NCBI GenBank assembly: GCA_019828565.1
Contig: JAHDYR010000012.1
Coordinates: 1,669,780 to 1,733,779, forward strand
Direction: 5' to 3'
DNA: 64,000 bases
Source: Carpediemonas membranifera BICM
Taxonomy: Eukaryota; Protista; Fornicata
Every line of letters begins with the position of its first letter. Position 1 is the first letter of the stretch. Below, in pieces: positions 4,765 through 55,379 of the stretch. The notes beneath the pieces were generated by a model that saw only the letters and a program-made list of their open reading frames with translations, made no database searches and was not told where the DNA came from. A program made the translations under genes and the position numbers.

Positions 4765-5549
4765 ATGCCAACGTCAATCGAGGTGGATGACCTTAAAGAC
4801 GTCGAGCAGAAGTATGTGAAGGAGGTTTATGACGTTATTGCTGCTCATTTCGCCTCCACGCGGACCAAAGGCCCTGTTAGTCCCGTTTTCCCCGCCTTAT
4901 CCAGTGGGCTCCCGTCAAGGCCTATTTGAACAAGCTCCCCGATCATTCGGTGGTCCTAGACGTAGGATGCGGCAACGGCAAGTACTTTCTCGTGAACCCG
5001 CGTCTGTTCATGGCCGGCCTGGACCAATCCGCCGAGCTCGCCAAGATCGCCGTCAAATCGGGCAACCCGCTCGGCCTCACCGTCGGCAATGCCACCGCGC
5101 TCCCCTTTTCGTCCAGCGCCTTTGACCATGTGCTCTCCATCGCGGTGCTTCACCACCTTTCCGACCCCGCTACCAGGGCGACCATGTTGGGCGAACTCAT
5201 CCGTGTCACCCGCCCCGGGGGCACCGTGTTCGTCTCAGTGTGGTCTACTAACGCCCCGTCGGCCGGTAAGCGGAAGGGCCCTGGGCAGGAGCCCGGGCAG
5301 GACAGGCTTGTCCCATGGCACCTGCAAAAGAAGTTCACGGACGACGATAAGGTGGCGAAAGCACAGACACCGCACGACAACACGGGCGACACGAGGAACC
5401 TGGAGGTGTTCTACCGCTACTACCACTTCTTCAGGGAGGGCGAGCTCGAGGAGGCCGTGAGGGATGCCGCCGAGACGTGCGGCCGAGAAGTCTCGGTGGA
5501 GGTCAGCTCAGACAAGGGGAACTGGTACGCCGAGATCACTGTGCACTGA
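4765..5549 (+). CDS. Trm9/ALKBH8-like SAM-dependent tRNA methyltransferase, 2 exons (4765-4875, 4905-5549)
   Basis: Removing the 29-nt intron GTTAGT..CCAG (4876-4904) joins EQKYVKEVYDVIAAHFASTRTKGP to WAPVKAYL..VLDVGCGNGKY..SIAVLHHL..RYYHFFREGEL..KGNW, which are typical Trm9-family motifs. Confidence 0.88.
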
Positions 5550-7945: not shown

Positions 7946-8897
7946 CACCCCGTCCAGGCCGCCTCTGCTCCCCACTCCGCCCCTGGTGTCCCCGCCATGG
8001 CCGTCGCCCCACGCTCCGCGAGGTGTTATAAGTGCGGCGACCGTGGCCACCTGGCCGACGTGTGTCCCCGTCCGAACCCGGTGTGTTTCCGGTGCAAGAA
8101 GGAGGGTCACGTTGCCAAGGACTGCCCTGCTCATGTAAATGACCGGGCGTATCAGGTTGGTGTTGTTGTTTCGGGTGAGGAGAGGGCCGCGCAGGAGGAG
8201 ACAGCGACGGTGTATGCTGTCAATAGCGGCTGCAGCACGTGGACACGGTGGTCGACGTGGAAGGGGTCAGAGCAAAGGCGCTGCTGGACTCGGGCGCCGG
8301 GGTCAACCTCATGTCGGCAGCGAGGGCGGCGGACCTCGGGCTGACTGTCAGAGAGCCGGGGGAGATCCGGCAGGTTGAGGGTCTTGGTGACCAACCCGTG
8401 CCAGTCATCGGGCGGGTGACGGCGACGCTTGGAGGAAAGCCGGAGTGGTGCGTTGTAGAGCCGGACGTGCTCTTCGTCGGCTACGACACCTTGGTTAAGC
8501 GCGGCATTGTGCTGCCCGACATGGCGGATAAGCTGACAGCTACAACCGTCCCAGGTTCGCGTGAGGACAAGCTACAGCGACTGTACGCGTACGATAGGGA
8601 GGGGACGGCTGCTGACTTGCCCATGTTTCAGCTTAAGCTGGCAACGGACGCAAGACCGTTTAGGGCATGGCCGAAGAAGATGGGCGTCGAGGATGCAGCG
8701 TGGGTGCGTCAGGAGGTGGCGAGCATGCTGAGGAAGGGGGTGATACGCCCGTCACTTAGCCCGTACGCATCGAGGGTGGTGCTCGCTGACAAGAAGGGGG
8801 GTTGTCAGTCAGTACAATTTAAGAACATTTATGGATTGACTTCGACACCCCTGTGTCGAAGTCTTTTCCCCCAGTAAAACAGGTATAGTCAAACCAC

Positions 8898-8909
8898 AGT
8901 AATATTACT
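8898..8909. promoter_or_regulatory. Palindrome at PBS position of B: AGTAATATTACT
   Basis: Perfect 12-bp palindrome overlapping the last A of the 5' LTR; ATG 4 nt later. Confidence 0.85.
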
Positions 8910-12954: not shown

Positions 12955-15900
12955 TTATTCTTCGTCGATCGCACCAGCAGACTCGCGCAGCCGGGCCAGG
13001 AGCAGCTCAGGGTGCCACTCAGGGCGAACACGCGGCCAAAGACGGGCATTGGTGAGGTAGTTGGTGATCGGGAGGCAAGTGCACATGGATTGCGTGAGCT
13101 GAGTGAGTCCAGGCACGGCGTAATTCTGATACTTAACCACAAGGGTGAAGCTTTCGCGGAACTGTTCGTTGTACAGCTCAATGTGCCTGAGGCACTCGAC
13201 GATCACATAGTCGAGTGACGGGTCAGACACCTGCGGCACGAGCTCGGCAGCGCTGATCGTGGTCTCGATCCGTGCGATGCGATCGTTTGTGAGCAGGGCG
13301 TAGTAGTCCGTCACAAACCGTGTCGCCTCGTGAGCAGACAGACGGTCGACGCGACGGGCCTGGGCCACCATCCAACAGCAGTACAAGGAAGGGTGCGAAG
13401 AGATCATGATGATCCGCATCAGGGACTGGTTCGCCAGGGTTCGGAGATAGGATGGCTGGCGATCAGCGAGATCGGGAGTGATGCGGGTCAGGGTCGCTAC
13501 CACGACGTCGACCGTAGATCGGGAGAAACAGCCGGACGTGACACCGTCAGAGGCGAGCAGAGCCTCGGCGAGGGCAACATCGGCAGGTGAGTCGATCTCA
13601 AAGTGGGACCGCAGTGCACGGCCCACGACGGCGTCGGTGACGAAGTCCGTCAGGAGCAAGAGGGACTGACGCGTCATGAGGTCCCCAGCCTCATCGCCAG
13701 CGCTGAAGACCTGTGTGCCGTGTTACGAATGAGTTTTATGCAACAAACTCCCGCAGTTTAGGGTCACACTTCCCCCCATGCGGACGCATTAACGGCGCCC
13801 GGAACTGCGGAACTTCTTCTTGGCGGCGGCGAACGCGGCTTCATGCTCTGGATGAGCGACGAGGTAATCATCGAGAGCCGCTAGCTGGTCATAGTACCGG
13901 TTATAGGGTACATAGGAGTCTTCGTCGGGTGTGAGGCCTTCCCAACGGATGAGGAGCTCCAATGAGCCGTTCTTCTTCTTCTTGTGACCGACGATCTCCT
14001 TGACGGGCTGTTCGCCTTGCTCGAAAGCGGCGATCCGCTCGAGCTCGGTGTCGGATAAATCGGTCTCGAATCGGACCAGTCTGTCGGCGTGGACCGTGCT
14101 GACGCATCTTGTGACGAGGTCACGGACGCGGTAGGTGTTCGGGTGTTCGCCCTTCCCCTCCATGCGGAAGGGTCCGCGCAGGGGGGTGTAGATCTTAGCC
14201 GGGGGCTTGCCCGGGTAGCGCAGGAGAACGTATTGTTCTCTCTCCCACGCATGAGTGTCTGCTGTGGCCTTGGCCTTGCGCGCCTCGTACGCGCGAATCT
14301 TGACGCGGGCGAGGGCTTGTAGAGCGGCTACGTCCTCCTGGAAGCGGACAATCTCACCTTCATCAACGCTCCCAGGGGTGCAGCTCTTCGTGGCGTTTGC
14401 CAGAGCGATCGGGGCGACCCGTAGCGTCGATTCTTTGCCGAACAGCAGTTCGAAAGGGGAGCGACCGGTGGTGGCGTGGCGGGTAGAGTTGATGACGTGT
14501 TGAGCGAGCGGTAAATAGGCGGGCCAGTCGCCGTCCTCTGCGTCTAGGAGGAGCGCTCTCATGCGAGACATGATCGTGCCGTTGAGTCGTTCAACGACTC
14601 CGTTGCTGGCCGGGTGGTAAGGGGTTGAGAACCTGTGCTGAAGACTGATGATGGCGTTACACTCGGCAATGAGGGCGTTACGGAATTGAGTGCCCTGGTC
14701 GGTTTGAATCTCCTTTGGGACTCCGAACGTGGACCACACATCCAGCATCGCTGCTGCAGCCTCTTCGGCCTTTGTAGTAGCGACCGGACGGAGGATCGTG
14801 AACTTGGAGAAGACATCCACGATCGTGATGATGTAGGACATGCCGGCCTCTTCCGGAAGGGGGCCTATTGTGTCAAGCTGGACCGTCTCGAAGGGCTTGA
14901 GTCGCTGCGTGGAGTGCCACTTCGTCTTCTCGCGGGCAGGGGGTCTAACCTTCTGGCAGACGGCGCAACTTCTGAGGGTCTCCCGGACGTCCGATTTCAT
15001 GTCGGGCCAAGACTGCCCGGCGTTGCGGAGATTTGCCATCGTCTGAGCGACGCTGACGTGGCCCTGTGCACCGGCGTGGGCCTGGTTGATGAGGTGACGG
15101 TGAGAACTGGAGACCTGTTCGATAGCGGCCTTGAGGTCGTCTCGGTCCTCTGGGACGCTGCTAGGACGGGACAGCGAGTCGGCGACGACGTTGTGGACGC
15201 CCTTGATGTGGGCGATGGAGTAGGGGTATTCGGTCATTGTCAGGCGCCAGCGAGTAAGCTTTTTCGTGCCCTCCTCGTCCGTCTTTCTCAGGAGCCAAAT
15301 AAGGTTCCGGTGATCGGTTCTGAGAGAGAACGGCTTAATCTTAAGGAGGGCTGAGAACTCCGGTCGAGTTACACAGTGGATGATCGCGTAAAGCTCCTGT
15401 TCGACGGTCGACCACCTTTGCTGAGTCTCGTCCAAGGTCTTGGAATAAAAAGCGAGGGGAACCTTCTCAACTCCTTCGCCCTGCCAGAGGACCCCGCCGA
15501 TCGCTACTGAGGAGGCATCGGTCTCCAAGGTCCAGGGCTTGTCTAAGTCTGGGAGGGCGAGCGCCGTGTGTTCGGTGACCAGGTCTTTCATCTTAGCGAA
15601 AGCGGCGTCCTGCTCGGCGCCCCAGGCCACGGGGGACGACTTCCCCGGAGAGCCCTTAAGCAGCCGGTTGAGAGGTGCTGCGGCGTCGGCGAGATGGGGA
15701 ATGTAATTCGACAAGTAGTTGAACTTGCCGAGGGATCGACGGAGTTCCGACGTGGTGGTCGGAGGAAAGAGGTCGCGGATGGCCTGGACTCGAGCGGGGG
15801 CAACGGATCTGCCCATCTCGTTAACGATGAAGCCGCACACCTCAACCTCGGAGAGGCCGAGGGCACACTTGTCGGCCTTCAGTCTGACGTTGGCCGCCAG

Positions 15901-18900
15901 TAGATGATCGAAGAGATCCGTGATGGCGCTCTTGAACTCTTCCTCCGTGTGCGAGTAAGTGAAGATATCGTCGACGTAGGCTTTGGAGCTCTTGCAGTCT
16001 TCCAACACCTCGTCCATCGCTCTCTGGAACTTGGCCGGGGCATTCTTGAGCCCGAAGGGGGTACGAAGAAACTCGTAATGACCGCCTGGGATAGTGAAGG
16101 CGGTGAGTGAGACGCTGTCGGGGTCCATACGTTGCTGCCAGTAGCCGCTTCGGAGGTCGAGCGTGCCGAAGAGTGAGCAGCCGCTTGCCTCATGGACGAA
16201 GGAGCAGATATCTGGTGTCGGGTAGCGATCGTCTTCGGTGGCTTCATTCAGAACGTTATACGCGACGCAGAACCTGTCCTCACCGTTCTTCTTCTTCGCC
16301 ATCACGTGTGGGGATGAGTACGGCGAGTCACTTGGGCGGATGACTAATTGTTGGAGCATCTTGTCGATTTCAGCGGCGGCGCTGGACGCTTGGGAACCCT
16401 TAAGGGGGCGTGGTCTTGCCTTCGGGAGCCTGTGGTCGCCAGGCTTCAGGGTGATCTTGTGTGGACGCAACTCGCTGCCGTCCTCTGGCAGCTCGCCGAA
16501 GAGCTCGCGGCGTTCGTATAAGAAGCCTTCGAGCCACTTAGTGAGGTCTGGATTGTCATCGTAAGGGATTCGGACCTTCTTCCACTCGTTATCAACATCA
16601 ATCTCATCTGTGCAGGAGTCGAGATACGGGTGTGGAGGCAGATTGTCGTTGTCGGAGATGGTGGCGGATGACGGGATCAGCAGTCTGTCGTTCATGAGGT
16701 AGCCCAACCTTCTGAGGAGGTCGCGGCCGATCAGGACCTTTCGGCGTTTGGCGCGGATCACCATCAGCAATGCGGTGGCCTGCACGGTCTTGCCATCGAT
16801 AGACGGGAGAGTGATGTCGACCTTTGCGGCCTTACCGATGGAGATGACCTCGTCGCCGGCGCCGAAGAGCTCGACTGAGGTGTCGATGAGCTGGTAATTC
16901 GGGACCTTCGCTAGTGCGGGCTCCGAGATGACTGAGACGCAGGCTCCGATATCGAACTTCGTCTTGATTTGGACACCGTTGATCGTGGCCGGGACGTTGA
17001 TGGGGTCGTTGTCGATCTCAACAGCCCCCACCTCATAGACGTCACCTTCGTCCTCGGACTCGGCGTCATCTGAGGCGTTGTTGTCGACTTCATGGACGTC
17101 GCGCTGGCCGCGCGAGTTGCGAAGCTTTGAGGAGTCCCTCAGGAACATGTTGCCGGCCCGACGGTCGGACTGCGTACCGCTGGTCTGCTTCTGGTCGTTC
17201 TTCCGCGGCTGAGAGGAGCCGGAGGTGCCCTTGGACTGGTTGTCCTTCTGCCGTGCGAGGAACCTGCATGACTCTGTCGTATGGTTACTGTTCCACCCAT
17301 GAGACTTGCACCACTTGTTGAAGTGCTGTGGGATGGCATACTTGTGCTTGTCTTTGAACTGGAGATAGGGATCGCTTGTATGGGGCAGTACTGTCGGCTT
17401 TTGCTTGCCAGGGGCGCGACGGCCGCTGTCTTTCTGGTCGGCGGGTTGGGATGTTACCGCGAACGCCCGCCACGGGACAATAACGCGTTCGTCGTGATCG
17501 ACGTCGAGGTTCTCGAGGCGAGAAAGAAGATCGTCGATTGACTCGGCTGGGTCCTCGATGATGTCCTCGTAAAGAGCCTCGGCGTCCTTGCTATAGCCCT
17601 TGAGGAAGATCGACCCCAGTAAGCGCTCGGTCGAGTTGTAGGTTAGTGCCTCGATGTCTGGGACGCATGGATCGTAAGCGTTGAGGATCCTACGTAGCTT
17701 GAAGACGGCGAGTCGGTGCTCGACGGCTGGGCCGAAGAATCTAAGGCCGGATGCCTTGTCGCGCACCATCTTCAGTCTCGATCCCATGTCGAGGGTCGGT
17801 AGGAGCGTATAAACGATGTAGGGGATGATCGCCTTTGCCTCGGCGCGGAGGTAAGCGTAAACGTCGGGGAAATCAGCACGCTTTGGCCAGGCGGCCAGGT
17901 CGGGCTTCTCATCTATGGTGGGCTCCGGGACCTTGTCAGAGAAATCTGGGAGTGTCATGTCGGTCCCGTCAGGCACGGGGACAGTCGGGGTTGCGGCGCT
18001 GAAGAGGTCGGACCATCTGTTGGCCGCGGGGTCCTTCATGTACGAGGTGATGAATGTCCGGGCCTTCTCAGTGGCCTCCGGGATTGCGCGTTGTATCTCT
18101 GCCGAGATTGACTCCTTTGTCAGGCTGGTGAGGGCCGGGTCCTTGAAGTTTGAAGAGACCCGCACACACTCTGCGTACTGCGCTCGCTTGCAGGCCGCCT
18201 CAAAGGCAGCAGCGAAACGCTTGGCGATTGCATCTGCGGTGGGATTGTGGGATATAGCTTGCGGAGCCTCGTCCGAACGGGCCTGAGCTCGGGCTTCGGC
18301 GTCAGACATAATGGAGGTCTGGAGGCTCTCAAGAGTGGGAAATTTCGCTGTCGGACGCCAATCACGCTTTAACTTCGCGACCGTGTCCGCTGTGAGCGTT
18401 TGGATGAAAGAAGTTGGGTTTCTCTCGTGGATAATTGCAGTGGTGTAATCCGCGAGCGCCTGGATTGCGCTTTCTGGATCATTAGTCGTGAATTGCTTCA
18501 TTTCACCGGTAATATCGATATTGTGCCGTGTTACGAATGAGTTTTATGCAACAAACTCCCGCAGTTTAGGGTCACACCTGGCCGGTCCTCAGACGGGACA
18601 GCATGCCCTGGAGGGGCAGCTCGAAGCAGTTCGAGACGCGACCAGAGACCGAAGCGATTACGGTCTGGAAACGGGCTTCCCGCTCCGCCAGGTCCGCCCG
18701 ATGAGGTCCTTGGAGGTGCCCGCGGAGCACCTGGCGGGTGATGGGGCGGTTGGAGGTCCGGCGCTGGGCGGCCTCAACCGTGCTGACAGCATGACCAGCT
18801 TGGGCAGAACAAGTGGCGACAGCCACGACGCGTCCGGTCAAGGTGCGACGCGTACCTTCATCGTCGACGACAACACCCGTTACGCGGCGGATATCCTCAG

Positions 18901-19156
18901 GTGGGTGCCGGCGGGTGATCGCGCGAGCCGCAGGAACCTCGATGACGACGTCCTGTGGCGATGACGGCTCAACAATGGGTGCTGAGGAAGATTCCTCGGG
19001 ACGAGCACGTCTCTGGGGCATATCGGTGCTGTCCGGCACGAGCACGGACTGGTGTTTGCGCTTCAGAGCGCGGAGACGTTCAGCAACGGGCAGATTGCCG
19101 TCATTGCCAGCAAGATCAGCGATCAGTGCGTCCAAATCATGCACAAGGTTCTCCAT
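12955..19156 (-). CDS. B antisense accessory ORF, 444 aa after removing element C (19156-18577 + 13709-12955); C-terminal chromodomain-like region
   Basis: The two listed ORFs join in frame across TSD CCTG (..RTGQ-VFSAGDEAGDLMTRQ..). C-terminal DYVIVECLRH..LVVKYQNY. Confidence 0.75.
13789..18501 (-). CDS. C Gag-Pol single ORF, 1570 aa, intact
   Basis: CHHC-type knuckle CKSHGWNSNHTTESC, protease FDIGA, RT YVDD, RNase H TDAS, integrase, chromodomain IRWEGLTPDEDS. Confidence 0.95.
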   Translation of the reverse strand: MKQFTTNDPESAIQALADYTTAIIHERNPTSFIQTLTADTVAKLKRDWRPTAKFPTLESLQTSIMSDAEARAQARSDEAPQAISHNPTADAIAKRFAAAFEAACKRAQYAECVRVSSNFKDPALTSLTKESISAEIQRAIPEATEKARTFITSYMKDPAANRWSDLFSAATPTVPVPDGTDMTLPDFSDKVPEPTIDEKPDLAAWPKRADFPDVYAYLRAEAKAIIPYIVYTLLPTLDMGSRLKMVRDKASGLRFFGPAVEHRLAVFKLRRILNAYDPCVPDIEALTYNSTERLLGSIFLKGYSKDAEALYEDIIEDPAESIDDLLSRLENLDVDHDERVIVPWRAFAVTSQPADQKDSGRRAPGKQKPTVLPHTSDPYLQFKDKHKYAIPQHFNKWCKSHGWNSNHTTESCRFLARQKDNQSKGTSGSSQPRKNDQKQTSGTQSDRRAGNMFLRDSSKLRNSRGQRDVHEVDNNASDDAESEDEGDVYEVGAVEIDNDPINVPATINGVQIKTKFDIGACVSVISEPALAKVPNYQLIDTSVELFGAGDEVISIGKAAKVDITLPSIDGKTVQATALLMVIRAKRRKVLIGRDLLRRLGYLMNDRLLIPSSATISDNDNLPPHPYLDSCTDEIDVDNEWKKVRIPYDDNPDLTKWLEGFLYERRELFGELPEDGSELRPHKITLKPGDHRLPKARPRPLKGSQASSAAAEIDKMLQQLVIRPSDSPYSSPHVMAKKKNGEDRFCVAYNVLNEATEDDRYPTPDICSFVHEASGCSLFGTLDLRSGYWQQRMDPDSVSLTAFTIPGGHYEFLRTPFGLKNAPAKFQRAMDEVLEDCKSSKAYVDDIFTYSHTEEEFKSAITDLFDHLLAANVRLKADKCALGLSEVEVCGFIVNEMGRSVAPARVQAIRDLFPPTTTSELRRSLGKFNYLSNYIPHLADAAAPLNRLLKGSPGKSSPVAWGAEQDAAFAKMKDLVTEHTALALPDLDKPWTLETDASSVAIGGVLWQGEGVEKVPLAFYSKTLDETQQRWSTVEQELYAIIHCVTRPEFSALLKIKPFSLRTDHRNLIWLLRKTDEEGTKKLTRWRLTMTEYPYSIAHIKGVHNVVADSLSRPSSVPEDRDDLKAAIEQVSSSHRHLINQAHAGAQGHVSVAQTMANLRNAGQSWPDMKSDVRETLRSCAVCQKVRPPAREKTKWHSTQRLKPFETVQLDTIGPLPEEAGMSYIITIVDVFSKFTILRPVATTKAEEAAAAMLDVWSTFGVPKEIQTDQGTQFRNALIAECNAIISLQHRFSTPYHPASNGVVERLNGTIMSRMRALLLDAEDGDWPAYLPLAQHVINSTRHATTGRSPFELLFGKESTLRVAPIALANATKSCTPGSVDEGEIVRFQEDVAALQALARVKIRAYEARKAKATADTHAWEREQYVLLRYPGKPPAKIYTPLRGPFRMEGKGEHPNTYRVRDLVTRCVSTVHADRLVRFETDLSDTELERIAAFEQGEQPVKEIVGHKKKKNGSLELLIRWEGLTPDEDSYVPYNRYYDQLAALDDYLVAHPEHEAAFAAAKKKFRSSGRR
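18511..18522. promoter_or_regulatory. Palindrome at PBS position of C: AATATCGATATT
   Basis: Perfect 12-bp palindrome overlapping the 5' LTR end. Confidence 0.85.
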
Positions 19157-22100
19157 TAGGCCGTATGGAAGTATTAACCGCGGTCAAAACTTCATTTACG
19201 TGTTACATGATACAAAAACGTAGGACCTGGGTCATGACCAGGACTCCACACAGCTAAGTCAGGACGCTGAATAGCATGGTGCAACGCGTAATTTACGAAA
19301 GCAGACGGGTTAGGCAGAATTCGCCGACCGAGAAAGGGTCCGTTTGGTGAACCCCGATGAACGCTTGTTGAGGACGATAAGTCCGCAAAATCACGATATT
19401 TATACGTCTATGAGACGAATACTGATGTTGTTAGTGTTATAGAGCAATATTCGCGGCGTCCCAACTGTCGACGAACGAGAAAAGCAAAAAAAGGCCATAT
19501 CTCGGCAACGAAGAGGCTTTGAGGCCTCTAGAGGCGTTATTCGAACGCTATGTAAGAATGAGGGCTTTCAAGGCCGCATACCATGGTGGTTTCGAACTGA
19601 AGCCATTTGTGCATTTTAAGGATCCGAATGAACTAATCGACGACCATACGGCCCAGTAATGGCCCGTGGGAGGGCGGTAAGCCCGGGTAAGACTAACCCT
19701 TGAGCGTATGACGCAATACTTACACAGTGGTACCACGAAATTCTGAGTCAATCAATTTGGAGATACGTCACCACAGAACAACTACGGTTGTACCGGACAC
19801 CCTTACGTGGCAGTAAGAGTATGTCAACGGTGTTCCGGCTGCTGTGCTACCCACAGTTAGCGACGGTGAAGCAAGGGTTACCGAGCTAAGGCAGAGTACC
19901 CTTCCCGGGCACTGGGCTATTCCCCAGCCGCCAACGGTGAAGTAGGTTAGCACAGGCTTTCCCCTGTGAGGCCTACCGGCACAAGTTATTCATACTCAAG
20001 TCAGTTGAGCATGGAGGGGCAGTGTCAGTCAGTACAATTTAAGAACATTTATGGATTGACTTCGACACCCCTGTGTCGAAGTCTTTTCCCCCAGTAAAAC
20101 AGGTATAGTCAAACCACAGGGTGACAAGAGGCTATGCGTAGACTACCGACAGCTGAACAGGCTGACGGTGGACTATGACTACTGTTACCTTACAGTACCC
20201 GCTGCCCACCATATCCTCATTGATAGAGATGCTGGAGGGCAACTCCAAGTTCAGTACGCTGGACCTGAAGGCCGCGTTCAACCAGGTCGAGCTGGATGAG
20301 GATTCGAAGGGCCTCACAGCGTTCGCGACTCAGGAAGGCCAGTTTGAGTACAACAGGATGCCGTTTGGGCTCAAGTGTGCGGCGGCCCATATGCAGATGG
20401 CCATCGAGTCAGTACTGGGCGACCTCATCGGGCGCGCGTGCCTCGTATACATCGACGATATAGTCGTGTTCGGGGCCGACCAGGAGCAGCATGACGCCAA
20501 CCTGGACGAGGTGGTTGACCGGCTCTTGAAGCACAAGGTGGGGCTGGGCGAGGCGAAGTGCGTATTTGACAAGGAGGAGATCGAGTATGTGGGATGGATT
20601 GTCAGTGGAGAGCACAAGCGGATCGACCCGAAGCGAGTCGAGCACATCCAGAACATGCCCATGCCGGACTCCATTCCCGCGGTCAGGGGGTTCCTGGGCA
20701 CGGTTAACTTCGTGCACGACTGTATACCCCACTTGGCGTGGCGTGAGAGATGCCTACATCGCTTAGAGAAGAAGGACGCAGTGTTTGAGCGAGGCTGGAC
20801 ACCGGAGTGCGTCGAAGCCGTCAACACCATCAAGGCGGAGATCGCCAAGGCCGAGGCACTATGCATCCCCGGCGCAGAAGAACCACTCGAGCTGTATACC
20901 GACGCGTGCGAACACGGAGTGGGCGCAGTCCTCATGGCCAAGCGGGGCGACAAGCTCCTTCCGGTCGGGTATTTCTCCAAAGCCATCCAGGAAGACACGT
21001 CGAGGGCGAGGTGGAATATGACCCAGAAGGAGACGTTCGCCATCAAGGAAGGGGTCAAGCACTTCATTTCCTGAAGGGACGGAAGTTCACCGTCGTTACC
21101 GATCACCGCAACCTGTTGTGGATGGACCAGTCCGAGAACACGGTAGTGCAGCGGTGGGCCCTAGAGTTGCGGCAGCAGTACAACTTTGAGATCAGACATG
21201 TCGCCGGGGTGGACAACTCAGCGGCAGACTGGCTGTCCCGCCACCCGAGGAAGACAGCAGGGGAAGCGACCGAGAGCGTCTACGTAGCCAGCCCGGGTGA
21301 CGGCGAGACCCCGCATACATTGCCTGAGAGCCAAAAAGAGGCGCGGTTCAAGGAGGTACACGGAGCCGGCAAGGGCCACCATGGTGTGCAGCGGACACTA
21401 TGGAAGCTAGAGGACCGCGGGCTATTGTGGGAAGAGGCCGAGACCGATGTGTCAAGGATGGTCAAACAGTGCCCCATATGTCAGAAGTCCGGGCTAGGGG
21501 CCGACCCGTACCAGCTGGTACCCAGAGAGCCGCTCGGGCCATATGGCCGAGTGTTCGTGGACACCATTGTCATGAACGAGGCCGACGGTGAGTACAGGAA
21601 CATCGTCGTCGTTACCTTACCTTACAGTCGTGGAGGAGACGTCACGCTGGGTCACCCCCATACCATTGAAGTCAACGTCCTCGCGCGAGACCATCGAGGC
21701 GCTAGTCCGGCACTACCTGACCCACTTCCCGGTGCCGGCCGAGTGGGTGGCTGACAATGGGTCACAGTTCGCCTCCACCGAATTCCACGCATGGGCACAG
21801 GAGACTGGTGCGAAGGTAGACCACACCACGCCATATTACCACGAGGAGAATGGCGTGGTCGAGCGGTGGAACAAGGAGGTCAATCGTCACCTGAGGTGTG
21901 AGATGTACGAGCGGCAGACCCACAGGTGGGCCAGCCTGCTACCTGCCATCCAGAATATAATCAACTCCGCCCGATCGAAGGCGACCGGGTCGTCTGCATG
22001 GAGGTTGATAGTGGCAGACGGGACCAAGGCGTCCGTTGACAAGCTCAAAGCACAGAGGATGGAGGAGACCGAGGCTGTCATGGGTCTCACCCAAGATTAC

Positions 22101-22177
22101 ACAGATTTATATTGTCGAAGCCAGAATAAATGACGCATTCATTCTCGACTTCATGCGTCATAATTGTATTGATTCTC

Positions 22178-23133
22178 ATGGCCTATGGGATTGAGACGCG
22201 AATACGTTTTGGTCTTATGATGGACCAAGGGGCCTCCGAGAAAGATATAATGAAGCAACTCGGCATAATAAGCCGGTCAACAGTCACACGTTGGAAACGG
22301 TTGTACTATACGCACCAAGGAACGATCAAGAAGCGGAAGCGGGAACACAAATCGACGATGAAGCACGACAAGTTGATAATGCGAGCTGTTGCTAGGTGCG
22401 AGGATGAAGACAGACAGTTCACTGCTGCTGATCTTCGAGGCATGCTAGCAGGCTGGGTAGAAGACCCTCCCTCCGTATCTCACCTCCGCCGCTGGCTCAA
22501 GAAGCACCGCTACAACTACAAGCTGGGCCTCAAGATGTGGTATGAGAGCGACCCCACACGTATCGGTGAGTTCTGGGCCGAGTACGCCACGGTAATCCGC
22601 CCTCAGCACGCGTTCAAAGATCTTGTCTTCTTAGACGAGACCTCCTTCGACCCCCATCAGGCACGAACCAAGGGGTGGATGGCCGTGGGCGACTCGGTGA
22701 GCAGGGCCAGCGGGAAAGTTGTGGGCAATCGCGTTTCAGTATGCGCCCTCCTCGGCGTAAATGGGATCATAGACCGGGCTATCACCGAGGGAACGTACAA
22801 CGCGGACGACTTCTTTACTGTTCTACGTCGCTTCTTAGAGCGTATCCGCGGTCAGCACAAGGTCATGGTGCTCGATAACGCACGGAGTCATAAGACGGGA
22901 CGCGCTGAGCTGTATGAGCCACTGAGCAAGGAGTACGGAGTAACCTTCTTCTTTCTACCTGGCTATGCTCCTTTTTGAACCCCATTGAGACAGTGTTTGC
23001 CTGTGTGAAGAGAGAAGTGATCAAAAACCGTGGCAGGAACGAAGATGCCCTGCCATACATCACCGAAGCCTTCGATAGCGTGTCAGAACTTGTCAACTTG
23101 CCCGCATTGTTCCGTAAAGTGGGGTATTGGTAA
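22178..23133 (+). CDS. IS630/Tc1-type transposase (DD37E spacing), one frameshift in a T-run at ~22975
   Basis: N-terminal HTH (ISRSTVTRW), VFLDET, VLDNARSH, and LPGYAPF/LNPIE once the frame is restored. I count 37 residues between the second D and E. Confidence 0.85.
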
Positions 23134-23225
23134 ACGTGCAGTTTATGTCATCACCTCCAAGGCGCCATACACGGACCATGGGCAACACTGAGGATAATAA
23201 ACGATCAAGAGGTGCAACCAAAGGT

Positions 23226-23696
23226 TTATTCTTCCACGTCGTCTTCCTCTGTACCGTCCAACCCAGACGCATCCAGCGCCTGAGATGCTGAGACAGTACT
23301 GACGCGACCAGCTGCCAGGCGCCTGTTGTGTAGCCACGTATAGAGATCAGCTACTGCTTCAGTAGGCACAGGAACATGCACGAAGCTTGCGTCGACTGGA
23401 AGAGCCGGTGGTGATGATACAGAGATGAAGGACCCGGATGACTGGGATGATGAACGGCTGTATTCGCGATGCGAAAGGCCCATTGGAATCTCAGTCATAT
23501 CTGCCTTGTCGAGGATAACTTGAACCGCCCATGAAGCGATTCTCTCAACCGGAAGGCGCTTCGCTGTCCCATTCGCCGTCAGTATGTCTCGCATTGTCCC
23601 AAAAATGCTACACCCACCATCTAGCTTGTTTTTAAGGGTAACAAGCGGGCAGGTTCCGGCGTGATGGCCTGTTGCGCGGCATATAGTACAAGGCAT
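23226..23696 (-). CDS. Second, convergent transposon ORF with N-terminal CCHC zinc knuckle
   Basis: MPCTICRATGHHAGTC fits C-x2-C-x4-H-x4-C. It lies wholly inside the TIRs and is followed on its own strand by TAAACTGCA. Confidence 0.65.
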   Translation of the reverse strand: MPCTICRATGHHAGTCPLVTLKNKLDGGCSIFGTMRDILTANGTAKRLPVERIASWAVQVILDKADMTEIPMGLSHREYSRSSSQSSGSFISVSSPPALPVDASFVHVPVPTEAVADLYTWLHNRRLAAGRVSTVSASQALDASGLDGTEEDDVEE

Positions 23697-23851
23697 TCCA
23701 ACTTTCCTTTGAATGAATCAAAAATCCTTTTGGAATGCGTCATTTAGTTTGGTTCTCACAATATATGATATTAGTTAGTCAAGGAGTTTCTCCTCGACAC
23801 CATTGTGTCGAGTCTTCTCCTCTTGTAAACATAGTTCGTCAAACGAACCAC

Positions 23852-23863
23852 AATACTAGTATT
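23852..23863. promoter_or_regulatory. Palindrome at PBS position of D: AATACTAGTATT
   Basis: Perfect 12-bp palindrome overlapping the 5' LTR end. Confidence 0.85.
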
Positions 23864-26800: not shown

Positions 26801-29800
26801 ATGGGAATGCCTTCGAACTTCCAGATTCCATCACGGTCTCTCGAGTAGCCAGCCCTGACCCAGGTATCTCTCTCTCTCTCGTGCGCTGCTTGCGCCTTCA
26901 TGATTCTCTCGCTCCAGCTTAGCGTCTCCCCCGCTTGGGCTTCTACCCTGGACAGCTGGTCTGCGACTTGATTGTCTCGACCCGCGATGTGGAGGATACT
27001 GAATTTGTAGTCACTCAGTATCAGAGACCACCTCATCAGCTTGTTGTTCAGGTCCCGCTTTCCCATAAGGTACATCAGATTTCTGTGATCAGATCTGATT
27101 GTGAGGTTGTGGTGCAGCTTAAACAGGGGCGACAGGTGACTGCTGGTAAGGCACGCCAGGATGGCGTACAACTCTTGTTCGTACGTACTCCACCGCTGTT
27201 GTGTTTCACTGAAGCTCCCGGCGAAGAAGGAGACAATCTTCCACTTCTCCTCGCTCTGCTGTTGGTAAAGTACACCTCCAAACCCGGTAGCGCTGGCGTC
27301 TGTGTGCAACTCCCACTTCTTGGAAGGGTCAGGGAACGCTAGCGACACAGCCTCTTTCACCTTCAGCTTGAAATTGTCGAACGCCTGCTGGTGCTCACTC
27401 GTCCAACTGACCGGTTGTCCAGGCTGCGAGTCCTTCCTCAGGCGATTCAGGGGGTCAGCACTCTGCTGGAGTCGTCCACAAAGCGCGACACGTAGTTAAG
27501 GGAGCCTAGCGTCCGCTCTAAGGCCTTGTAGTTGGTCGGCGGTGGCATGTCTAGCACTGCCTCGATACGCGATGGGGCTAGTCGTTGCCCTTGCGCGTCC
27601 AGTATGTACCCCACGACCTCAGCTTCGGCTGCCCCTATCGTGCATTTCGGCGCCTTGAGTCGCAAGTTGAATTCGTCAGTTCTCTGGAAGACCCTCTCAA
27701 GGATCTCTAAGAACTCTTCCTTCGAACGAGCGTAAACGAAGATATCGTCGATGTATACTGAGGTCCCCTTGTGTAGCAGTGGGGCATACACCCTGTCCAT
27801 CTCCCGCTGGAAGCGGGATGGGGCATTGGTTAGCCCGAACGGGCAGCGCAAGAACTCCATGTAGTTGTCCGGGGTGATGAACGCTGTCTTATGTACGTCC
27901 TCCTCCGCCATGGAGAGCTGGTAGTACCCTTGACGCAAGTCAAGTGTCGCGTAGTACTTGCACCCTGCGGCCTCTCGCACGAACTCCTGGATGTTCGGCA
28001 GTGGGTAGTGGTCCTTCACTGTGATAGCGTTCAGACTCTTATAGTCTATGCATAATCGGATCTTGTCAGACCCCTTGTGTCCACCCGACACTACTACGAC
28101 TGGGGAGGCAAACGGTCCGACACTCGGTCGCACTATCTCCTCCTTCTCCAGTCTTGCCACCTCCTCTTCCACTAGATGCCTCTTCTGAGCGTTCAAGGGG
28201 CGCGGGCCCACTCGAACTGTGGTGTCCTCAGTCAGCTCTATGGTCATAGGCTTCAGACCGTTGCTCTCCGGGAGGTGTGGGTCGAATATCTGCGCGTATT
28301 TCTCCGCTAGAGTTCTTATCTCGCCAGCTATCTCGGAGTCTGGGATGTTGATGAGGCTGACCTGGTCACTGCCTTCGTCCTCCACTGCACAAGCGAGGTA
28401 CGGGTGGTCGAGCGCGATATCGTCGTCGCCGTCAGTCGCCTGCGAGGGCGTCTGCGGCTTATATATGTGTAGGCCTTCGTCGCTGAGCAGCCCGAGGGCT
28501 CTGAGAGCGCTACATCCGAGGAGCATGCGTCCCGATCCTGGGATCACAAGCATTCGGATCGTGACAATCAGGACGCGCGGTCCGATGTCTGGTAAGGTGA
28601 TCGTGAGCTCTACGGCTGTCTTTCCTGTCACGATGGCCCCTCCCGCGACTCTTACTCTAAAGGTCGGACATGGGATTGTCTTGATGCCTGGGTCGTTCTC
28701 CTTCATCTCTCGTAGTGTGTTCTCGGGGATGAACGGATGAGTGGCCCCAGTGTCCACGACCATGATATAGTCTCTGCCATTTACAATGGCCTTCGTCGTC
28801 AGCGCCTCGTCTCCTGCCTCCATTGCTTCGAAGGGTGCAAGGGTGTGGTCGCCGGTTCTCTTGGGACACAGATTGTCGTAATGCATCTGTCCGCAGTGCC
28901 GGCAAGGGCGCATCTTTCTCTTGCCAGACACAGGCAGCACCGTGGAGGGCGTCTCTGATTTCTGGGTCTGTGGCGCGCTGCCCTTAAGACTGATGTTGTT
29001 ATTAGGAGGCTCGCCCCCGCCGCTCGGGTCGGGGGTTGGTTGAGCCTCCTCGGCCTTGGCAACAGCACGTGCCACCGCAACCAGAGAGGTAAGAGTCTTG
29101 GCCTCGCAGAGCTTGGACTCTAGATCAAGGCGCTCAAAGAGTGCCTTAGGCTTGATTCGCTTAAGGAAGATCTCCCGTGCAACCTTATCGAACTTGTCGG
29201 CGCGGAGGCGCGCGGCCTCTGCCACCGTGAACTGACGTTGGACCGTACGCTTCTTAGCGGTACCGTCTTCGTCGATAAAAGCCTCTTCGGCGGACTTAAG
29301 ACCGTAAAGAGGGATCATGGCTCGAGTCGCGTCGTCATTGAGGGCGACGGTCTCGGCGAGCTCAGCAAGCTCCATGAAGTCAGCGATGAACTCGCGCACG
29401 CAAGTGGTGAGTGGGAGTTTGCTGATCGCTGTAGTGGAGCACTGAAGCTGCTTAAGCTGAGTTTTGAGGGCGCTCAAGCTCTTCGGCATGGACTCCTTCG
29501 TGAGGAAGTCGAAGACTTGTTCTTCGGAGAGATCTTCGGCTCTCTTGAGGCCGTAATGAATCTCAATCTCCTTTTGAAGGGAATCGCACAGTAGTAGAGC
29601 TATCTTGAAGTCAGGATGGCGCGTCTTAAAGACTCTCACTTCACGCTTGAAGGCACGAACGCGTTTTTGCGTAAGATCCTTTGCTTCGATGCTAGGGAAT
29701 GAATAATCGATGCTCAAGCTTACCATTAAGCAAAGTAATTACTTATGCGGCGGCAAACGGAATTCTCTTTACATAAACTGCACTGACTCGAGCGCCGTCG

Positions 29801-32275: not shown

Positions 32276-32318
32276 ACCCTCCTATTCTCATCTCGCCTGA
32301 TTTATTGTTGATTAGTTG

Positions 32319-35300
32319 TTAGAGTCGGCGGCCCCGACCAGCGAAGGCAGGTCCAGTACTGCGCGGTTCAACCCCGTGACGAGCAAGGTGCGCTACCACT
32401 TCAGGCAATTCTAGCAACTCCGGCGTCGGGTACGACCGTGTCACAAACCTGTAGTCTTCCCATTTCAACGTGAGGAGTCGACCACCCGGGCCATTGCGAC
32501 TGCCAACAACTCGTTCCAGTCGATAAGTACGGAGCTCATCAGTGAACTGGAGCCCTCCGTCGCCCGTAGTCATGAGTACCGGTACCCACTGTGGATGGGC
32601 TTTGAATACCCGCATGACCAAGCGGAATCGCTTCTCCATCTCCGGTATATCAGAGGACCGGTAGCAAGCCTCTTGAAGCAAACCATAGACTCCCGGGAAG
32701 ACGGCTGACGTTGTCGGTGGGAAACATTTTAATCTCGACACAATGGTGTCGTAATCATCAACTGATTAAATGATAAGGAGTCTACGACATCCTGCTCCTC
32801 CCCCGCTCCGAGGTGTTCAACGGCTTCCATCGAATCCTATGTTGCCGGAGGTAGTCGGAAATTGGGCCGACCTTGGCATTGTCGCGTGTCAGTGGTTCCC
32901 ATGTCGGTCTGGGTGTAGCCCTCCCACTTAATGAGTAGGGTGTGGTCTCGAGTGTTGTGCTCAAGTACTTGTTCTACAATGTATCTCTCGTCGTCGGAGG
33001 CGGCATACTGTCTCGCCAACTCCAGGGAGATGTCAGGGCAGAGGGCAATCTTGTCCAGATGCGTGAATTGCCTCTCGTCATTGAGTAGGGACGCTACTTC
33101 AACAGCGTTGTTGCTGTGGATTGCGTGAACCTTGAATGGGCCGAGTAGGCCGTGCAGCTTGTGCTTGACAGCTGGTTTGATGAACACTAGGTCACCTGAC
33201 CTAATAGCTGGGCGTGTTGGGGCAGGGCCCAGCCTCTCCTCCCTCTTGTTGCACTGAGTTATAACCTTGTCCAGATTGTCCTGGACGTGAGCTAGTCGAT
33301 CGAGATATTGCGCGATATCGGGTCTCTCTAGCGCCGCTTGTTGATTTCTGACCAGACCGATCTCTGCTCGGCGGCCGTAGACGACCTCGTGCGGCGATAC
33401 GCCGAGCTTCGTGTGTGTTGATGTGTTCAAGATGTGCTGGACGAAGGGGAGGAGTTGGCTCCACTCTCCATAGCCGTCCATAGCCAGCGCCAGCCATCTG
33501 AGGTGACGTCCGACTTCCGCGTTCCGGCGCTCGACCACCCCGTTACTTTGAGGATGGTATGGCAACGTCCGCTGGTGGTGCGCTCCGAGCTGTTCAATCA
33601 GGAGGCTCACGACCTGATTAACATACTCTGTTCCGTTGTCACTCTTGATGTAGCTTGGGATGCCGTGGCGGGTGACGGCCAGCCATATGGCGTCGACCGC
33701 GCTCTGGGCATTGTTTGCGGTTGCCGCATGCAGCTCTGTGTAGCGTGTGTAGAGGTCCGTGATGACGTAGATGTACTTGGCCCCATACGCGTCCTCCGAC
33801 AGCGGTCCCACCGTGTCGATGGCTATGGTGTTCCAGAACGAGTCTTGAATGGTGCGCCCCTCTGGGGCTGACAAGAACTGCTTGAGCCTTGTCTTGGCAC
33901 AGGTGGGGCACTGCTGGACGAAGTTGCTCACGTCTCTAGCGCGGCCGGGCCACCAGGCGACCTCGGCTACCCGTTGAAGCGTATCAGCTCTGCCGCCATG
34001 TCTGCTGTGGGCGGCTTTGATCAGCTTGTGTCGTAGCGCTCTGGCGTCTTTGGGGAGGACGGGGACGGCATCCTTCACCCAGGTGTTGTTGTTGATGGTG
34101 GCACCAGCGCGTCGCCAAGAATCCTTCTCCTCTTGGGAGGTGTTCTTTTGAGCAGAACTAATCTCATCGTTCCAATCTGTAAGCTCCACGGCTAGTGCGT
34201 CGATGCGGGACATCAAGTCCGCGGTCTCGTTATCAAGACCGGCGATATGTTCGATTGTATACTGATAATCCGATAGTAACAGCAACCAACGGAGGATCTT
34301 ATCGTTCTTAAGCTTCTTCTGATCAAGATACACAAGGTTCTTGTGATCAGTCTGAATTGTCAGATTTGGGTGAATCCTGAAGAGCTGGCCAAGATCTGGT
34401 CTGGTCAGGCAGTGTATGATTGCGAACAGCTCCTGTTCGTAGGTACTCCACCTTGTCTGAGTCTTGTTGAAGGATCCCGAGAAGAACGAGACTATCTCTT
34501 GGCGTCCGTCGTCCCCCTCCTGAGTGAGGATGCCACCGAATCCTATATCTGAGGCGTCCGTCTGGAGCACCCACTTCTTGTTGAGGTCCGGATGGACCAG
34601 TACTAGGTACTTCTCGAGGCGTCTCTTGAACTCGTCAAGTGCCTCATCATGAATCGATGACCAAATGAAATCGGCGCCATCGGTGGCCGACCGCAAGTCA
34701 TTGATGGGAGATAGTACTCTACTAGCGTCAGGAACAAATTTCGCTACGTAGTTCAGCGAACCACACATTGAAAGAAGTCCTTTCTTCGTCGTTGGCGTTT
34801 TCAGGGCATGGATTCCCTCCACGCGTTCCTTGCTTAGCTTTAGGCCCTCTGTATTACAGATGAAGCCTAGCATCTCCACCTCCTCCACGCCAATCTTGCA
34901 TTTCGGCGCTTTGAGCCGGAGGCGTTGTTCCTTGCAGATATCAAGGACGTTGTGCAGCCGTTCTAGGAACTCCTCCTTCGTGCGGCCATATATCATGACA
35001 TCGTCGATGTAGATAGCCACGCCGTGGTGTAGCTCCTTCGCGAAGGCCTTCTCCATACATCTCTGAAAGTGTGATGGGGCGTTGCAGAGGCCAAACGGGA
35101 GTCTCTCGAACTCCTCGTACGCATCCGGGGTGATAAAGGCGGTCTTGGGAATGTCCTCCTCCTTAACCTTGACTTGATAGTAACCTTGTCTCAGGTCGAG
35201 ACTGGCGTAGTACTCTGCGCCTGCGGCTTCCCGCAGGTACGCCCTGATGTCAGGTAGCGGGTACCTATCCCGCTTCGTGTGACGGTTGATGACGGTGTAG

Positions 35301-38300
35301 TCTACACAGGCGAATCTTGGTCGACCCCTTGTGCCCGTTCGAAACCACCACTACGGGCGAGGCATATGGCCCGTGACTGTGGCGGATAATGTGCTGGAGG
35401 TGCATCTGCGTGACCTCCTGGCGCACCTTCTCTCGCTTTTCCTCCGAGAGGTGTCTCGGTTTTTGGTTGAACTCATTCACCCAGTCGTCGGAAATGAAAT
35501 CAATAGACATCGGTTCAAGCTTGCTACCTTCTGTAGGGAGCTCTTCCTCGAACACTTCTTCGTATGCAGCGCAGATCTCTCGTGCTGCTGCGCCGGTTTC
35601 GTTCTCGCCGAACTCGATCTTATCGATTTCGGTCTTGATGCTCCTATTATCAGCGTGTTCCGCCGATAAGTAGCTGTGGTTGTAAGGGAGGATGTCATCT
35701 TCCTTCTCCGGGCCTTCTGGCGACGGGAAAGGGAGGAAGATTCCTCTGTCGCTGATGAACCCGAGGGCTCTCAGCTGATCTACGCCCAATAGGAGCTTCT
35801 CCACAGGACCTGGGAGTACTCTGAAGCTGATGTTCTTGACTATGGGTCTCGTGGTCAGGTGTGGGAGCTCGACGCGGAGCTCAACCATCTCATTACCCTT
35901 GACGGTGCTACCTCCCGCCAGCGAGACGATAAACGGTTGGCACTTCTTCGGCTTGATGGAGTTGTCACGCTCTCTCAGAGTGTGAAGCAGTCGGCTGCTA
36001 ATGAATGAGACCCCGGCTCCCGTGTCAACCGTAGCAGAATAGGAGGAGTGATTTATGACAGCCTCCGTGTGGAGAGCTTCAGCATCACCCTCCTCTGCCG
36101 TGTGCGCCTCGAAGGGCGTCTTCTTCGGGGGGTTAGGGCGGAGCTGGCCGCTCTCGCGGGTCCGGCCCCCGAGCTTAGGGCAATCTGAGTCCCAGTGCTC
36201 GCCTCCGCAAAGGCGGCACGGTCTAGTACGCTGCTTACGCGAGGACTGGGCGGCAGTGGTGGTCTTAGCAGCCTGGGGAGGCGCCTGACGGTGCTCCCGG
36301 TGGTCGTTGGCCTGCGAGGCGCCTGCAGAGGTGCTGGAGGCGGTCGTGGTCGTGGAGTTAGACGCATCCTCGAGCTTGGCGACGGTGCGTGCGATGTTGA
36401 TGAGGTCCTTGAGGGAGGACGGCTTGACGAACTGGCTCTCGAGCTCGATCCTTTCGTAGAGCGACTTCGGCTTGATCTTCTCCAGAAAGATCTTCCTTGC
36501 CGTCTTGTCGAAGGCGGCTGCTCGCTTCGCTGCGACGTCGGCGGCAGTGAGGAGTGCCTCCTCCTCCACCACCTCGGCAGTGCCGTCTTCAAGCAGGCGG
36601 GCCATCTTTCGCTTCTCCTTGCCAAAGAGCGCTGCTAGGCTCTCGCTGCCCTCCTTCGCGGCGGAACGAAGGGCGTAATCTGCGAGTTCCACGAAATCGG
36701 CGCCCAGCTGGCGGACGACAGAGAGATTCGAGGGGTAACCCTCGGTACCCAGCTTCGGGCACAGCACAGCACGCAGCTGGCGTTTAAGTTCGAGCAGGGA
36801 ACGGGGTGTGGCCTCGGATTCGAGGAACTCATATACTTGGTTGGAGGTGGCGCTCTCAGCGCTCACACCGAGGGTTGCTTCTAATTCTTCCTGTAACTCC
36901 TCGCTAAGCAGGAGCCCGGTAGCATAGTCGGGGATCCGAGCGCGAAACACGCGAACCTCGGCTTTGAATTTCTTAACACCGCGAGGATCGAGCTCCTTGG
37001 CCGACATACGCGGGAAATTATAATCGATTTCCAACTGAACCATTACGAGTGATCACTATGACGTTGTCGGTGGGAAACATTTTAATCTCGACACAATGGT
37101 GTCGTAATCATCAACTGATTAAATGATAAGGAGTCTACGACACGGCTAAGGCCAGGAGGTGGCAGAGGGACTTGTCACCCCTACCAGGGAGCTTGCGTCG
37201 GATAGCGTCCATCTCATGGTGCCAAGTGGCGGCGCGATGCAGGTCCAGTTCAGGTAGTGCCTGGGCAAGTTTCATGAAGGCCTGAAGATCGAGCAACACG
37301 CGACGCGCACAAGAAACACCCTTATGTTGGCGTTCGACGTCTTCGAGGGAGAACTCACACTCGAACCGCTGTTCACGGAGAGAATTCATAAGCGGGGTGA
37401 GTGTTAGAGCAATCGAATGGGCGTGCTCGCCCAACAGCCGATGGACCAGCCGGTTCAAGTCCGAAACGTCCGTTCCTGAGGCGTGGGAGAGCTGGCGAAC
37501 CGTAGTAGTCACGTCAGCAGGCTGGTTGGCTTCGGGCTGGCCGTCTGGCAGCGTTGGGGAGCTGTCATTCCCCGGGGCATCGTCCGAAGAAGTCGGCGAT
37601 TCGTCTTCTTCGCTGTCATCGTTCGAGCTCTCGTCTACCGACGAAGCGGGCTCTGAGTGACACACGGGACGGCGCACAAGCCTCTTGCGCCTCCTGTTGC
37701 CCGGTGCTACGCGTGACTGAAGAGAGAATTCGTTTACTTGGGGAAATCCGCATAGTTGGACCAAAGGTCAATCGTGGTCAAACCCACGTCACTACCCCCT
37801 TCGACGAGAAAAACCCACCTGCTAAAGGAAGGGAAAAGAGGGTACTTAGTACTTGTCGAGGGACTTACGAGCTTTGCGTGCCTTACGCTTGATGATCTCG
37901 AGGTGCTTTATGGCACCGAGAGGCTCGTCGGTCAATTCATCGTAGCCTAGCCACTTGACCCGGGCTGAACCCTTTTTCCAGTCGATAGATACTATATCTT
38001 CGACTCTGTACTGCTCCTGATCCGACTCAGCTAGCTGCCTCATAAGGTCTTCGCTAACATCAGTCTCGAACTTCATCAGCTTGTCAATATGCGTAGCCTT
38101 GAGCCGGTTATCGCTTAGCGACATGAGCTTAGCTCTGTTGTTAGGGGAGTACCTCTACCACCTTCCACGGACCTGTGTGGGGTGTGTCAAGTTTTTGAGG
38201 GGCTTCGTTCTTCCAAAGAACGTAGTCCCCTGGCTCTAAGCCTGTGGTCTCGATCGGGCTCTGGTGAGGCCCTACTGCCTGTTTTGCCGCCTCTTCGAGG

Positions 38301-42337: not shown

Positions 42338-42508
42338 ACATGGAGTTATGATCTCTTTATTGTTGTCTTGATGTTGTTTAGTCGTTTAGTAGCTCTGTAG
42401 TGGGTCTTACCCAATACTTACATAGTTTATGACTTATAGATTACACCATATTTGCAACCATTGGGTTTTCTCTTTATTAAAGTTCTTTCCCTCCTCCAGT
42501 AGGAGCAC

Positions 42509-42520
42509 ATTAGATCTAAT
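42509..42520. promoter_or_regulatory. Palindrome at PBS position of H: ATTAGATCTAAT
   Basis: Perfect 12-bp palindrome overlapping the 5' LTR end. Confidence 0.85.
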
Positions 42521-55369: not shown

Positions 55370-55379
55370 AGTAATTACT
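55370..55379. promoter_or_regulatory. Palindrome at PBS position of I: AGTAATTACT
   Basis: Perfect 10-bp palindrome overlapping the 5' LTR end. Confidence 0.85.

Follow-up and report, generated by a model that had tools for sequence, protein, structure and literature searches.

We analyzed a 64,000-nucleotide (nt) window of the genome of the free-living flagellate Carpediemonas membranifera BICM (contig JAHDYR010000012.1, positions 1,669,780 to 1,733,779), where Ty3/gypsy long terminal repeat (LTR) retrotransposons, several of them with a chromodomain, form a nest next to a few host genes. All positions given below are those of the window. Three of the elements, B, D, and H, are chromodomain elements of PR-RT-RH-IN order with LTRs, and their reverse transcriptases (RTs) are 51–73% identical. 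The LTRs are short (96 nt in B and 114 nt in H) and identical within each pair, and an antisense reading frame lies between pol and the 3' LTR in all 3 elements. A protein-based search for relatives gave 1 and 0 loci in viral contigs, 80 loci kept of 334 in metagenome contigs, and 51 in genome contigs. In an RT tree of 56 rows, B, D, and H formed a single clade (support 97/94) with L002, a metagenome locus among the 80 kept and the sole clade member beyond the 3 elements of the window. L002 is a circularly permuted element with one 76-nt LTR followed by a palindrome (1862–1871), and its antisense gene (278–1143, minus strand) has a small intron of its own. The non-coding region before the 3' LTR of B, D, H, and L002 contains a two-part conserved cis element, which is not one fold: part alpha combines a stem-loop with a copy of the polypurine tract (PPT), and part beta is a predicted mini-intron that runs into a palindrome. 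The sequences flanking this module cannot be aligned among the copies. The 3' LTRs of the 3 elements are the following:

20023–20118: 3' LTR of B
48180–48293: 3' LTR of H
from 48776: 3' LTR of D

The initial annotation of this DNA had described 2 hairpins, the sequence GGTA(A/G)G, and a CA followed by a 10-bp palindrome in B, H, and D, and all of these motifs were found at the places and in the order described. Two details of B needed correction: hairpin 1 forms 7 of 8 pairs with one C-C mismatch, and the linker behind it is GGGA (4 nt) instead of GGA. The features of part alpha and of the true PPTs are:

19648–19667, plus strand: hairpin 1 of B (arms 19648–19655 and 19660–19667, 7/8 pairs)
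19668–19684, plus strand: degenerate PPT copy of B (GGGAGGGCGG), the 3' half of which forms hairpin 2, closing at 19684
47877–47894, plus strand: hairpin 1 of H (arms 47877–47882 and 47889–47894, 6 bp)
47895–47911, plus strand: PPT copy of H, GGAGGGGCAG (47895–47904), then TG, with hairpin 2 (CCCC at 47908–47911)
48509–48526, plus strand: hairpin 1 of D (arms 48509–48513 and 48522–48526; 5 Watson-Crick pairs, extendable by G-U)
48527–48542, plus strand: PPT copy of D, GGAGGGGCAG (48527–48536), with hairpin 2 (CCCC at 48539–48542)
19989–20022, plus strand: true PPT of B (20013–20022) and the stem-loop before it, with one mismatch
48154–48179, plus strand: true PPT of H (48170–48179) and the stem-loop before it
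48747–48775, plus strand: true PPT of D (48766–48775) and the stem-loop before it

In B, D, H, and L002 the true PPT ends in GGGGCAG and is directly preceded by a stem-loop (degenerate in B). The GGGGCAG core is found again in the internal PPT copy of H, D, L002, and a fifth element, and is degenerate in B. This fifth element is represented by a contig of 615 nt from runs X1 and X2 that matches 47889–47906 and then, 219 letters on, the PPT and LTR start of D; the letters preceding the first matched piece form the stem of H with a different 6-nt loop. Four runs (X1 to X4) were available in all, as contigs only and from at most 2 samples, X1 and X2 being probably one data set. The distance from part alpha to the 3' LTR is 345 nt in B, 275 nt in H, 239 nt in D, 275 nt in L002, and 236 nt in the fifth element. 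Of the 5 PPT or PPT-copy GGGGCAG sites in B, D, and H, 4 are preceded by a perfect stem of at least 6 bp, the exception being the true PPT of B, where one mismatch has to be allowed; the same is true of both PPT-type sites of L002. Elsewhere in the window such a stem precedes GGGGCAG at 2 of 11 sites, and the background is 12%. With this pattern, which was chosen post hoc, motif and stem appeared together in the non-coding region in 37 (H), 124 (D), and 234 (L002) of 20,000 simulations. Because a predicted stem-loop also stands directly 5' of the true PPT, hairpin 1 and the purine run would together copy the whole primer context, and a second plus-strand origin is the earlier idea that gained most from our analysis. 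To judge from the sequence, the chances that part alpha primes plus strands are evenly balanced. In the window and L002, a covariance model of alpha recovered the 4 sites on which it was trained and gave no further match below an E value of 0.35, with no match in the 94 of the other 131 relative loci that were searched; the exact module pattern had no match in the viral contigs. The model was trained on the 4 internal sites, and for want of hairpin 2 and the donor the true PPT of D scored just 7.9 bits (E 6.5) under it.

Part beta follows alpha in B, H, and D. What the initial annotation had overlooked is that GGTA(A/G)G and the CA plus G behind it are the 2 ends of a predicted plus-strand mini-intron:

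19687–19727, plus strand: predicted 41-nt mini-intron of B, GTAAGA...CTTACACAG
47913–47950, plus strand: predicted 38-nt mini-intron of H, GTAAGG...TTTATCCAG
48547–48566, plus strand: predicted 20-nt mini-intron of D, GTAGGA...CTAACCCAG

L002 has 2 further units, with predicted introns of 59 and 24 nt. All 5 units start with GTA(A/G)G and end with YTWAYNCAG, their lengths (20–59 nt) being unconstrained, and all 5 have a GT donor and a branch-like motif abutting the AG, the same 3' pattern as the host intron at 4876–4904. On the plus strand of the 64 kb, YTWAYNCAG has 5 matches, 3 of them in the modules and 1 in this host intron. Over the host intron, contigs of X1, X2, and X3 are 29 letters short (a gap placed only approximately), and these runs therefore behave like RNA. 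C. membranifera introns have been described as small, their branch site lying right against the 3' end (PMC1201135). Another host intron, predicted at 2692–2728, was rejected, being retained in the contig that spans the site. The pattern GTA[AG]G followed by CA and a 10-bp palindrome had 4 plus-strand matches in the window (the 3 modules and the end of the H 5' LTR) and none on the minus strand, versus 0.45 on average and at most 2 in simulated sequences (n = 40). In L002, which was not used to define the pattern, it occurred twice in 627 nt, a result reached in 1 of 20,000 simulations. Some of the patterns analyzed here were picked after seeing the data. On balance, and by the look of these signals, the spliceosome probably, if only just, sees part beta. 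Two further ideas were examined around the predicted intron. Back-splicing from the B donor to the LTR had no such joint among the contig joints, and a conserved sense open reading frame (ORF) 3' of the acceptor was discarded, as open frames exist there with no convincing likeness by eye.

In all 5 beta units the acceptor G is the first base of a perfect GC-rich 10-bp palindrome. The initial annotation had also overlooked that CA plus palindrome is the end of every 5' LTR here. Palindromes of both kinds, to which no strand is assigned, lie at:

19727–19736: 10-bp palindrome of B beta, self-duplex -16.8 kcal/mol
47950–47959: 10-bp palindrome of H beta, self-duplex -16.8 kcal/mol
48566–48575: 10-bp palindrome of D beta, self-duplex -19.8 kcal/mol
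8898–8909: AT-rich palindrome after the 5' LTR of B
42509–42520: AT-rich palindrome after the 5' LTR of H
23852–23863: AT-rich palindrome after the 5' LTR of D
18511–18522, 29733–29744, 37048–37057, 42058–42069, 55370–55379, 60131–60140: palindromes of the other 5' LTRs

All 9 5' LTRs checked in the window have an AT-rich perfect palindrome of 10–12 bp at, or within 2 nt of, the LTR end, versus none of the 9 3' LTRs, and in the 9 elements checked it replaces the transfer RNA (tRNA) primer site. We know of no priming mechanism for elements with a palindrome in place of this site. The internal palindromes vary at their centres (GTAC, CATG, or TGCA) and are predicted to form self-duplexes of -16.8 to -19.8 kcal/mol, compared with -8.2 to -9.6 kcal/mol for the 5' palindromes. 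Their hairpins are negligible (0 to -1.7 kcal/mol) and their predicted mean unpaired probability is 0.31–0.57. The dimer signal proposed initially thus fits the palindromes, with their strong predicted self-duplex and no hairpin, and the internal palindrome may be a dimer contact, a role that the modelling leaves somewhat short of probable. No complementarity to the 5' palindrome was found, either in the internal palindrome as its pairing partner or in the intron end as its primer.

The order of the parts is not fixed. L002 holds alpha once and beta twice, both beta units being upstream of alpha, and this different order indicates that alpha and beta are separable parts and removes the single fixed fold of the initial annotation. 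As for covariation, hairpin 1 shows changes in both partners at 4 of its 6 pairs, hairpin 2 at just 1 of 4. Paired cells amounted to 87.5% versus 75.0% in shuffles, counts that are weak because the 4 sequences are related and the structure was drawn from the same 4. The folding energy was ordinary on both strands (z -0.05 to -0.89 in 6/6 folds). Rfam covariance models gave no match at the module sites, and the lone weak match in the B region, to the CPEB3 ribozyme (14.9 bits versus a threshold of 35, E 0.75), lies at 19313–19365, outside the module. Sequences for 5'-3' cyclisation are known from Ty1. Here, the longest complements between the 3' region and the 5' leader were equalled by 9–60 of 60 shuffles in all 4 elements, and no cyclisation complement was found.

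These results point to a signal that is likely to serve copying and packaging rather than a ribozyme. We tentatively propose, as a possible rather than a probable reading, that the module combines a second plus-strand primer with a retained mini-intron whose palindrome links 2 genomic RNAs. Removal of the RNA by RNase H would allow the minus-strand DNA to form the stem-loop, both before the true PPT and before the copy, and its stacking would lengthen the primer hybrid, which is only 10 nt long. A strand started at the PPT copy, 240–345 nt upstream, would push off the strong-stop strand and so release it for the second jump, for which only a 10-bp AT-rich palindrome would be available for annealing in these elements. 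Repeated priming and strand displacement before the second jump have been reported for Ty3 (PMC5371799), Ty1 and EVADE carry additional PPTs (PMC7197481), and palindromes are required for Ty1 dimers (PMC6844567). Packaged RNA would retain the intron, translated RNA would either lose it or merely be marked by it, and pairing of 2 RNAs via the palindrome would hide the acceptor G. The module may have originated by duplication of the hairpin-PPT-U3 junction. A stronger version, in which a clade that primes without tRNA uses a spliceosome-gated intron to sort translated from packaged RNAs, the palindrome blocks splicing, pairs the genomes and may prime the minus strand in the way presumed for the 5' palindrome, and the duplicated hairpin-PPT drives the second jump, appears quite doubtful to us.

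Several observations weigh against the proposed combination of primer and retained intron. For priming, the PPT copy of B is degenerate while a paired change keeps hairpin 2, so that structure is favoured over priming in B. A TG directly follows the PPT copy in H and the fifth element only, and alpha is not central, so it is not a central PPT in the strict sense. The extra PPTs that are known are central and do not lie 250–350 nt from the LTR, and Ty3 is not known to have one (PMC5371799). For the intron, the predicted lengths of 20 nt in D and 24 nt in L002 are below those of the introns seen here (3 introns of 29–33 nt). Contigs of the 4 runs gave no splicing of any beta unit; none spans one, so they are uninformative on expression, and contig cover of the B, H, and D modules amounts to an 18-nt piece at most. 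The reverse complements of the donors resemble branch sites, and some beta ends (B, D, and the second unit of L002) can be read as minus-strand donors. A sense intron should moreover be lost on reverse transcription unless the spliced RNA stays unpackaged. It survives only if spliced RNA is not copied, and beta would then either sort RNA pools or act as a bound, unspliced signal. For the palindrome, known dimer palindromes lie near the 5' end. Finally, the full sequences are just 4 and of a single origin. Six other elements that were checked have almost no 3' non-coding region, and their lack of the module therefore says little.

The best-surviving alternative, which we still regard as unlikely, is that the module is DNA of the antisense gene, providing promoter elements (as the initial annotation had suggested among other functions) or the donor and acceptor sites for splicing an antisense leader whose start is in the 3' LTR or close to it. 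The features that bear on it are these:

46503–47613, minus strand: antisense gene of H, with a 33-nt GT-AG intron at 47329–47361
12955–19157, minus strand: antisense gene of B, split by insertion of element C
32300–42340, minus strand: antisense family region
19423–19557: upstream conserved block of B (TGATGTTGTT, A-run, GAGGCCTC hairpin)
47648–47775: upstream conserved block of H
48330–48395: upstream conserved block of D, with its TGATGTTGTT at 42369–42378, left of the H insertion

The antisense protein of H is 96% identical to 2 annotated C. membranifera hypothetical proteins, both of which are joined across the 47329–47361 intron. The antisense proteins form a family of several subfamilies in C. 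membranifera with a member in L002 (7 matches), relatives being found nowhere else, and have no Pfam, PDB, or Atlas match. A chromodomain-like tail noticed by eye was rejected, as profile comparison was unsupportive (probability 0.07%). The module region lies just upstream of this gene in 4/4 elements. The A-run/GAGGCCT block described further upstream in the initial annotation is indeed common to B, H, and D; its A-run part reads CTCAA...T-run...CAG on the minus strand in all 3, which is acceptor-like, and the block of B could be a promoter of the antisense gene or its splice acceptor. GAGGCCTC was not seen in the L002 non-coding region. Minus-strand donors exist in the B module (19723), in the D module (48562), and in the LTRs of H and D, and reverse transcription spares antisense introns, of which H carries one. 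Against this explanation, the palindrome letters vary, unlike those of a protein-binding site, the H module has no minus-strand donor whereas the plus-strand reading fits 5/5 units, AT-rich TATA-like words stand nearer to the antisense start than the module does, and the PPT copy is left unexplained. Positions 19508–19557 of the B upstream block show again a layout of hairpin, 3-nt purine linker, hairpin, and GTAAG (E 2.6); they are possibly a second, older unit, as L002 has 2.

Quite unlikely in our view is a structure for packaging or export only, in which Gag or, in a Rev-like manner, the antisense protein is bound by both hairpins and the palindrome, and the purine run never primes. The covariation of hairpin 1, the loss of the exact PPT in B with hairpin 2 kept, and the joint presence of module and antisense gene in 4/4 elements (one origin) all fit such a structure, but the folding energy is ordinary, hairpin 2 is weak in L002, the order of the parts varies, and the antisense protein has no recognisable RNA-binding family.

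Distinctly improbable is an internal mini-LTR, that is, a PPT, a 30–50-nt spacer ending in CA, and a primer-site palindrome arranged like a tandem junction, which would also make the module a second minus-strand origin. The palindromes found after 9/9 5' LTRs and 0/9 3' LTRs speak for it, and so does the order of PPT copy, spacer, CA, and palindrome in B, D, and H; in addition, the B spacer has 11 letters in common with the start of the H LTR, the longest match of 60 comparisons. In L002, however, the CA-palindrome units stand upstream of the PPT copy. The ends of the spacers agree with the host acceptor; CACA, with which true LTRs end (4/4), is matched among the 5 beta ends in B alone. The spacer begins with TG in H only, and a cDNA (complementary DNA) ending at this site would lose the 3' LTR. 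Since the order fails in L002, we take the likeness to an LTR junction, including the 11-letter match, as a hint to the origin of the module and not to its present function. The same match, and the contigs, in which no expression of these copies is seen over the module, would also suit a relic without function, left by an ancient duplication of the PPT-LTR junction. This we consider very improbable: the flanks cannot be aligned and RT identity is down to 51–73%, yet stems and palindromes stay paired as their letters change. A self-cleaving ribozyme or an RNA like an internal ribosome entry site, both named in the initial annotation and favoured by 2 adjacent short hairpins with a purine linker, is extremely improbable, given no Rfam match at the module, ordinary folding energy, no conserved reading frame seen downstream, and the reordered parts of L002.

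Other observations concern the LTRs and their surroundings. AGTAAA or TGTAAA words stand 20–30 nt before the LTR end (20093, 48872, and 1839 in L002); they resemble the Giardia poly(A) signal and, as such, would make R and U5 very short. At 8873, 26 nt before the end of the B 5' LTR, contig matches of X3 and X4 both begin, with 24–26 unmatched letters in front, making this position a candidate start site, adapter, or splice acceptor. On the plus strand of L002, a long T-run closing in TAG (1685–1714) lies shortly 5' of the PPT and resembles a strong splice acceptor. The word AAACTGCR occurs 17 times in the window versus 3.2 expected, 5' of 2 host genes (3653 and 5613) and in several LTRs (13752, 18560, 25485, 29775, 55531, and 60170), not including those of B, D, and H, and is a candidate host promoter motif. 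A DDE_3/HTH transposase element at 22113–23760 interrupts the 5' LTR of D. Between 8803 and 62750, many elements combine identical LTR pairs with frameshifted pol frames; these are recent insertions, and base-run assembly errors may possibly contribute. The region of about 1830–2230 has very deep and polymorphic contig cover in 4/4 runs and is a high-copy repeat, probably transcribed.

About 100 nt of sequence in this clade contain a second palindrome, another PPT together with its hairpin, and a predicted sense mini-intron. The module thereby offers separate, mutable parts with which the role of the palindrome and the retention of an intron in a retrotransposon can be probed, and it hints at a hairpin-plus-short-PPT rule for plus-strand priming. 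Its value would be modest if the parts serve the antisense gene only. We found no published description of the internal module in a search that reached few subscription journals and no supplements, and the main text of the C. membranifera genome paper mentions neither LTRs nor retrotransposons, although its supplements may describe repeats (PMC8516963). As for the antisense gene, Retand, Grande, and RIRE2 likewise have an antisense ORF between pol and the 3' LTR (PMC11963269); unlike theirs, the protein described here has no Pfam match and has relatives only in C. membranifera and L002. In fungal GalEa elements a palindrome right after CA, the Conserved Hairpin Site, likewise replaces the tRNA primer site. 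GalEa, however, belongs to Ty1/copia and has a second complementary sequence 12–41 nt downstream, so that our elements are likened to it by the palindrome alone, and the cited text describes no internal second palindrome (PMC5445492). The Ty1 PAL1 and PAL2 sequences are also short self-complementary sequences in non-coding genomic RNA; they lie in the 5' untranslated region (PMC6844567), whereas the palindrome of the module lies in the 3' region and abuts a predicted splice acceptor. In copia and EVADE, a sense intron is kept in genomic RNA and spliced from translated RNA, as is predicted here, but it yields a gag-only mRNA (PMC7197481), whereas the predicted introns of 20–59 nt stand behind the pol stop and change no protein. 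The central or additional PPTs of Ty1, EVADE, and HIV-1 are likewise second copies of the plus-strand primer inside the element (PMC7197481). Those of EVADE are internal and 15–19 nt long, compared with 7–10 nt and a distance of 239–345 nt from the 3' LTR in our elements, and unlike the extra PPTs of all 3 systems, the copy described here includes the stem-loop before the true PPT and occurs in a Ty3/gypsy clade. Altogether, each part of the module is of a known kind, and their combination and place are not.

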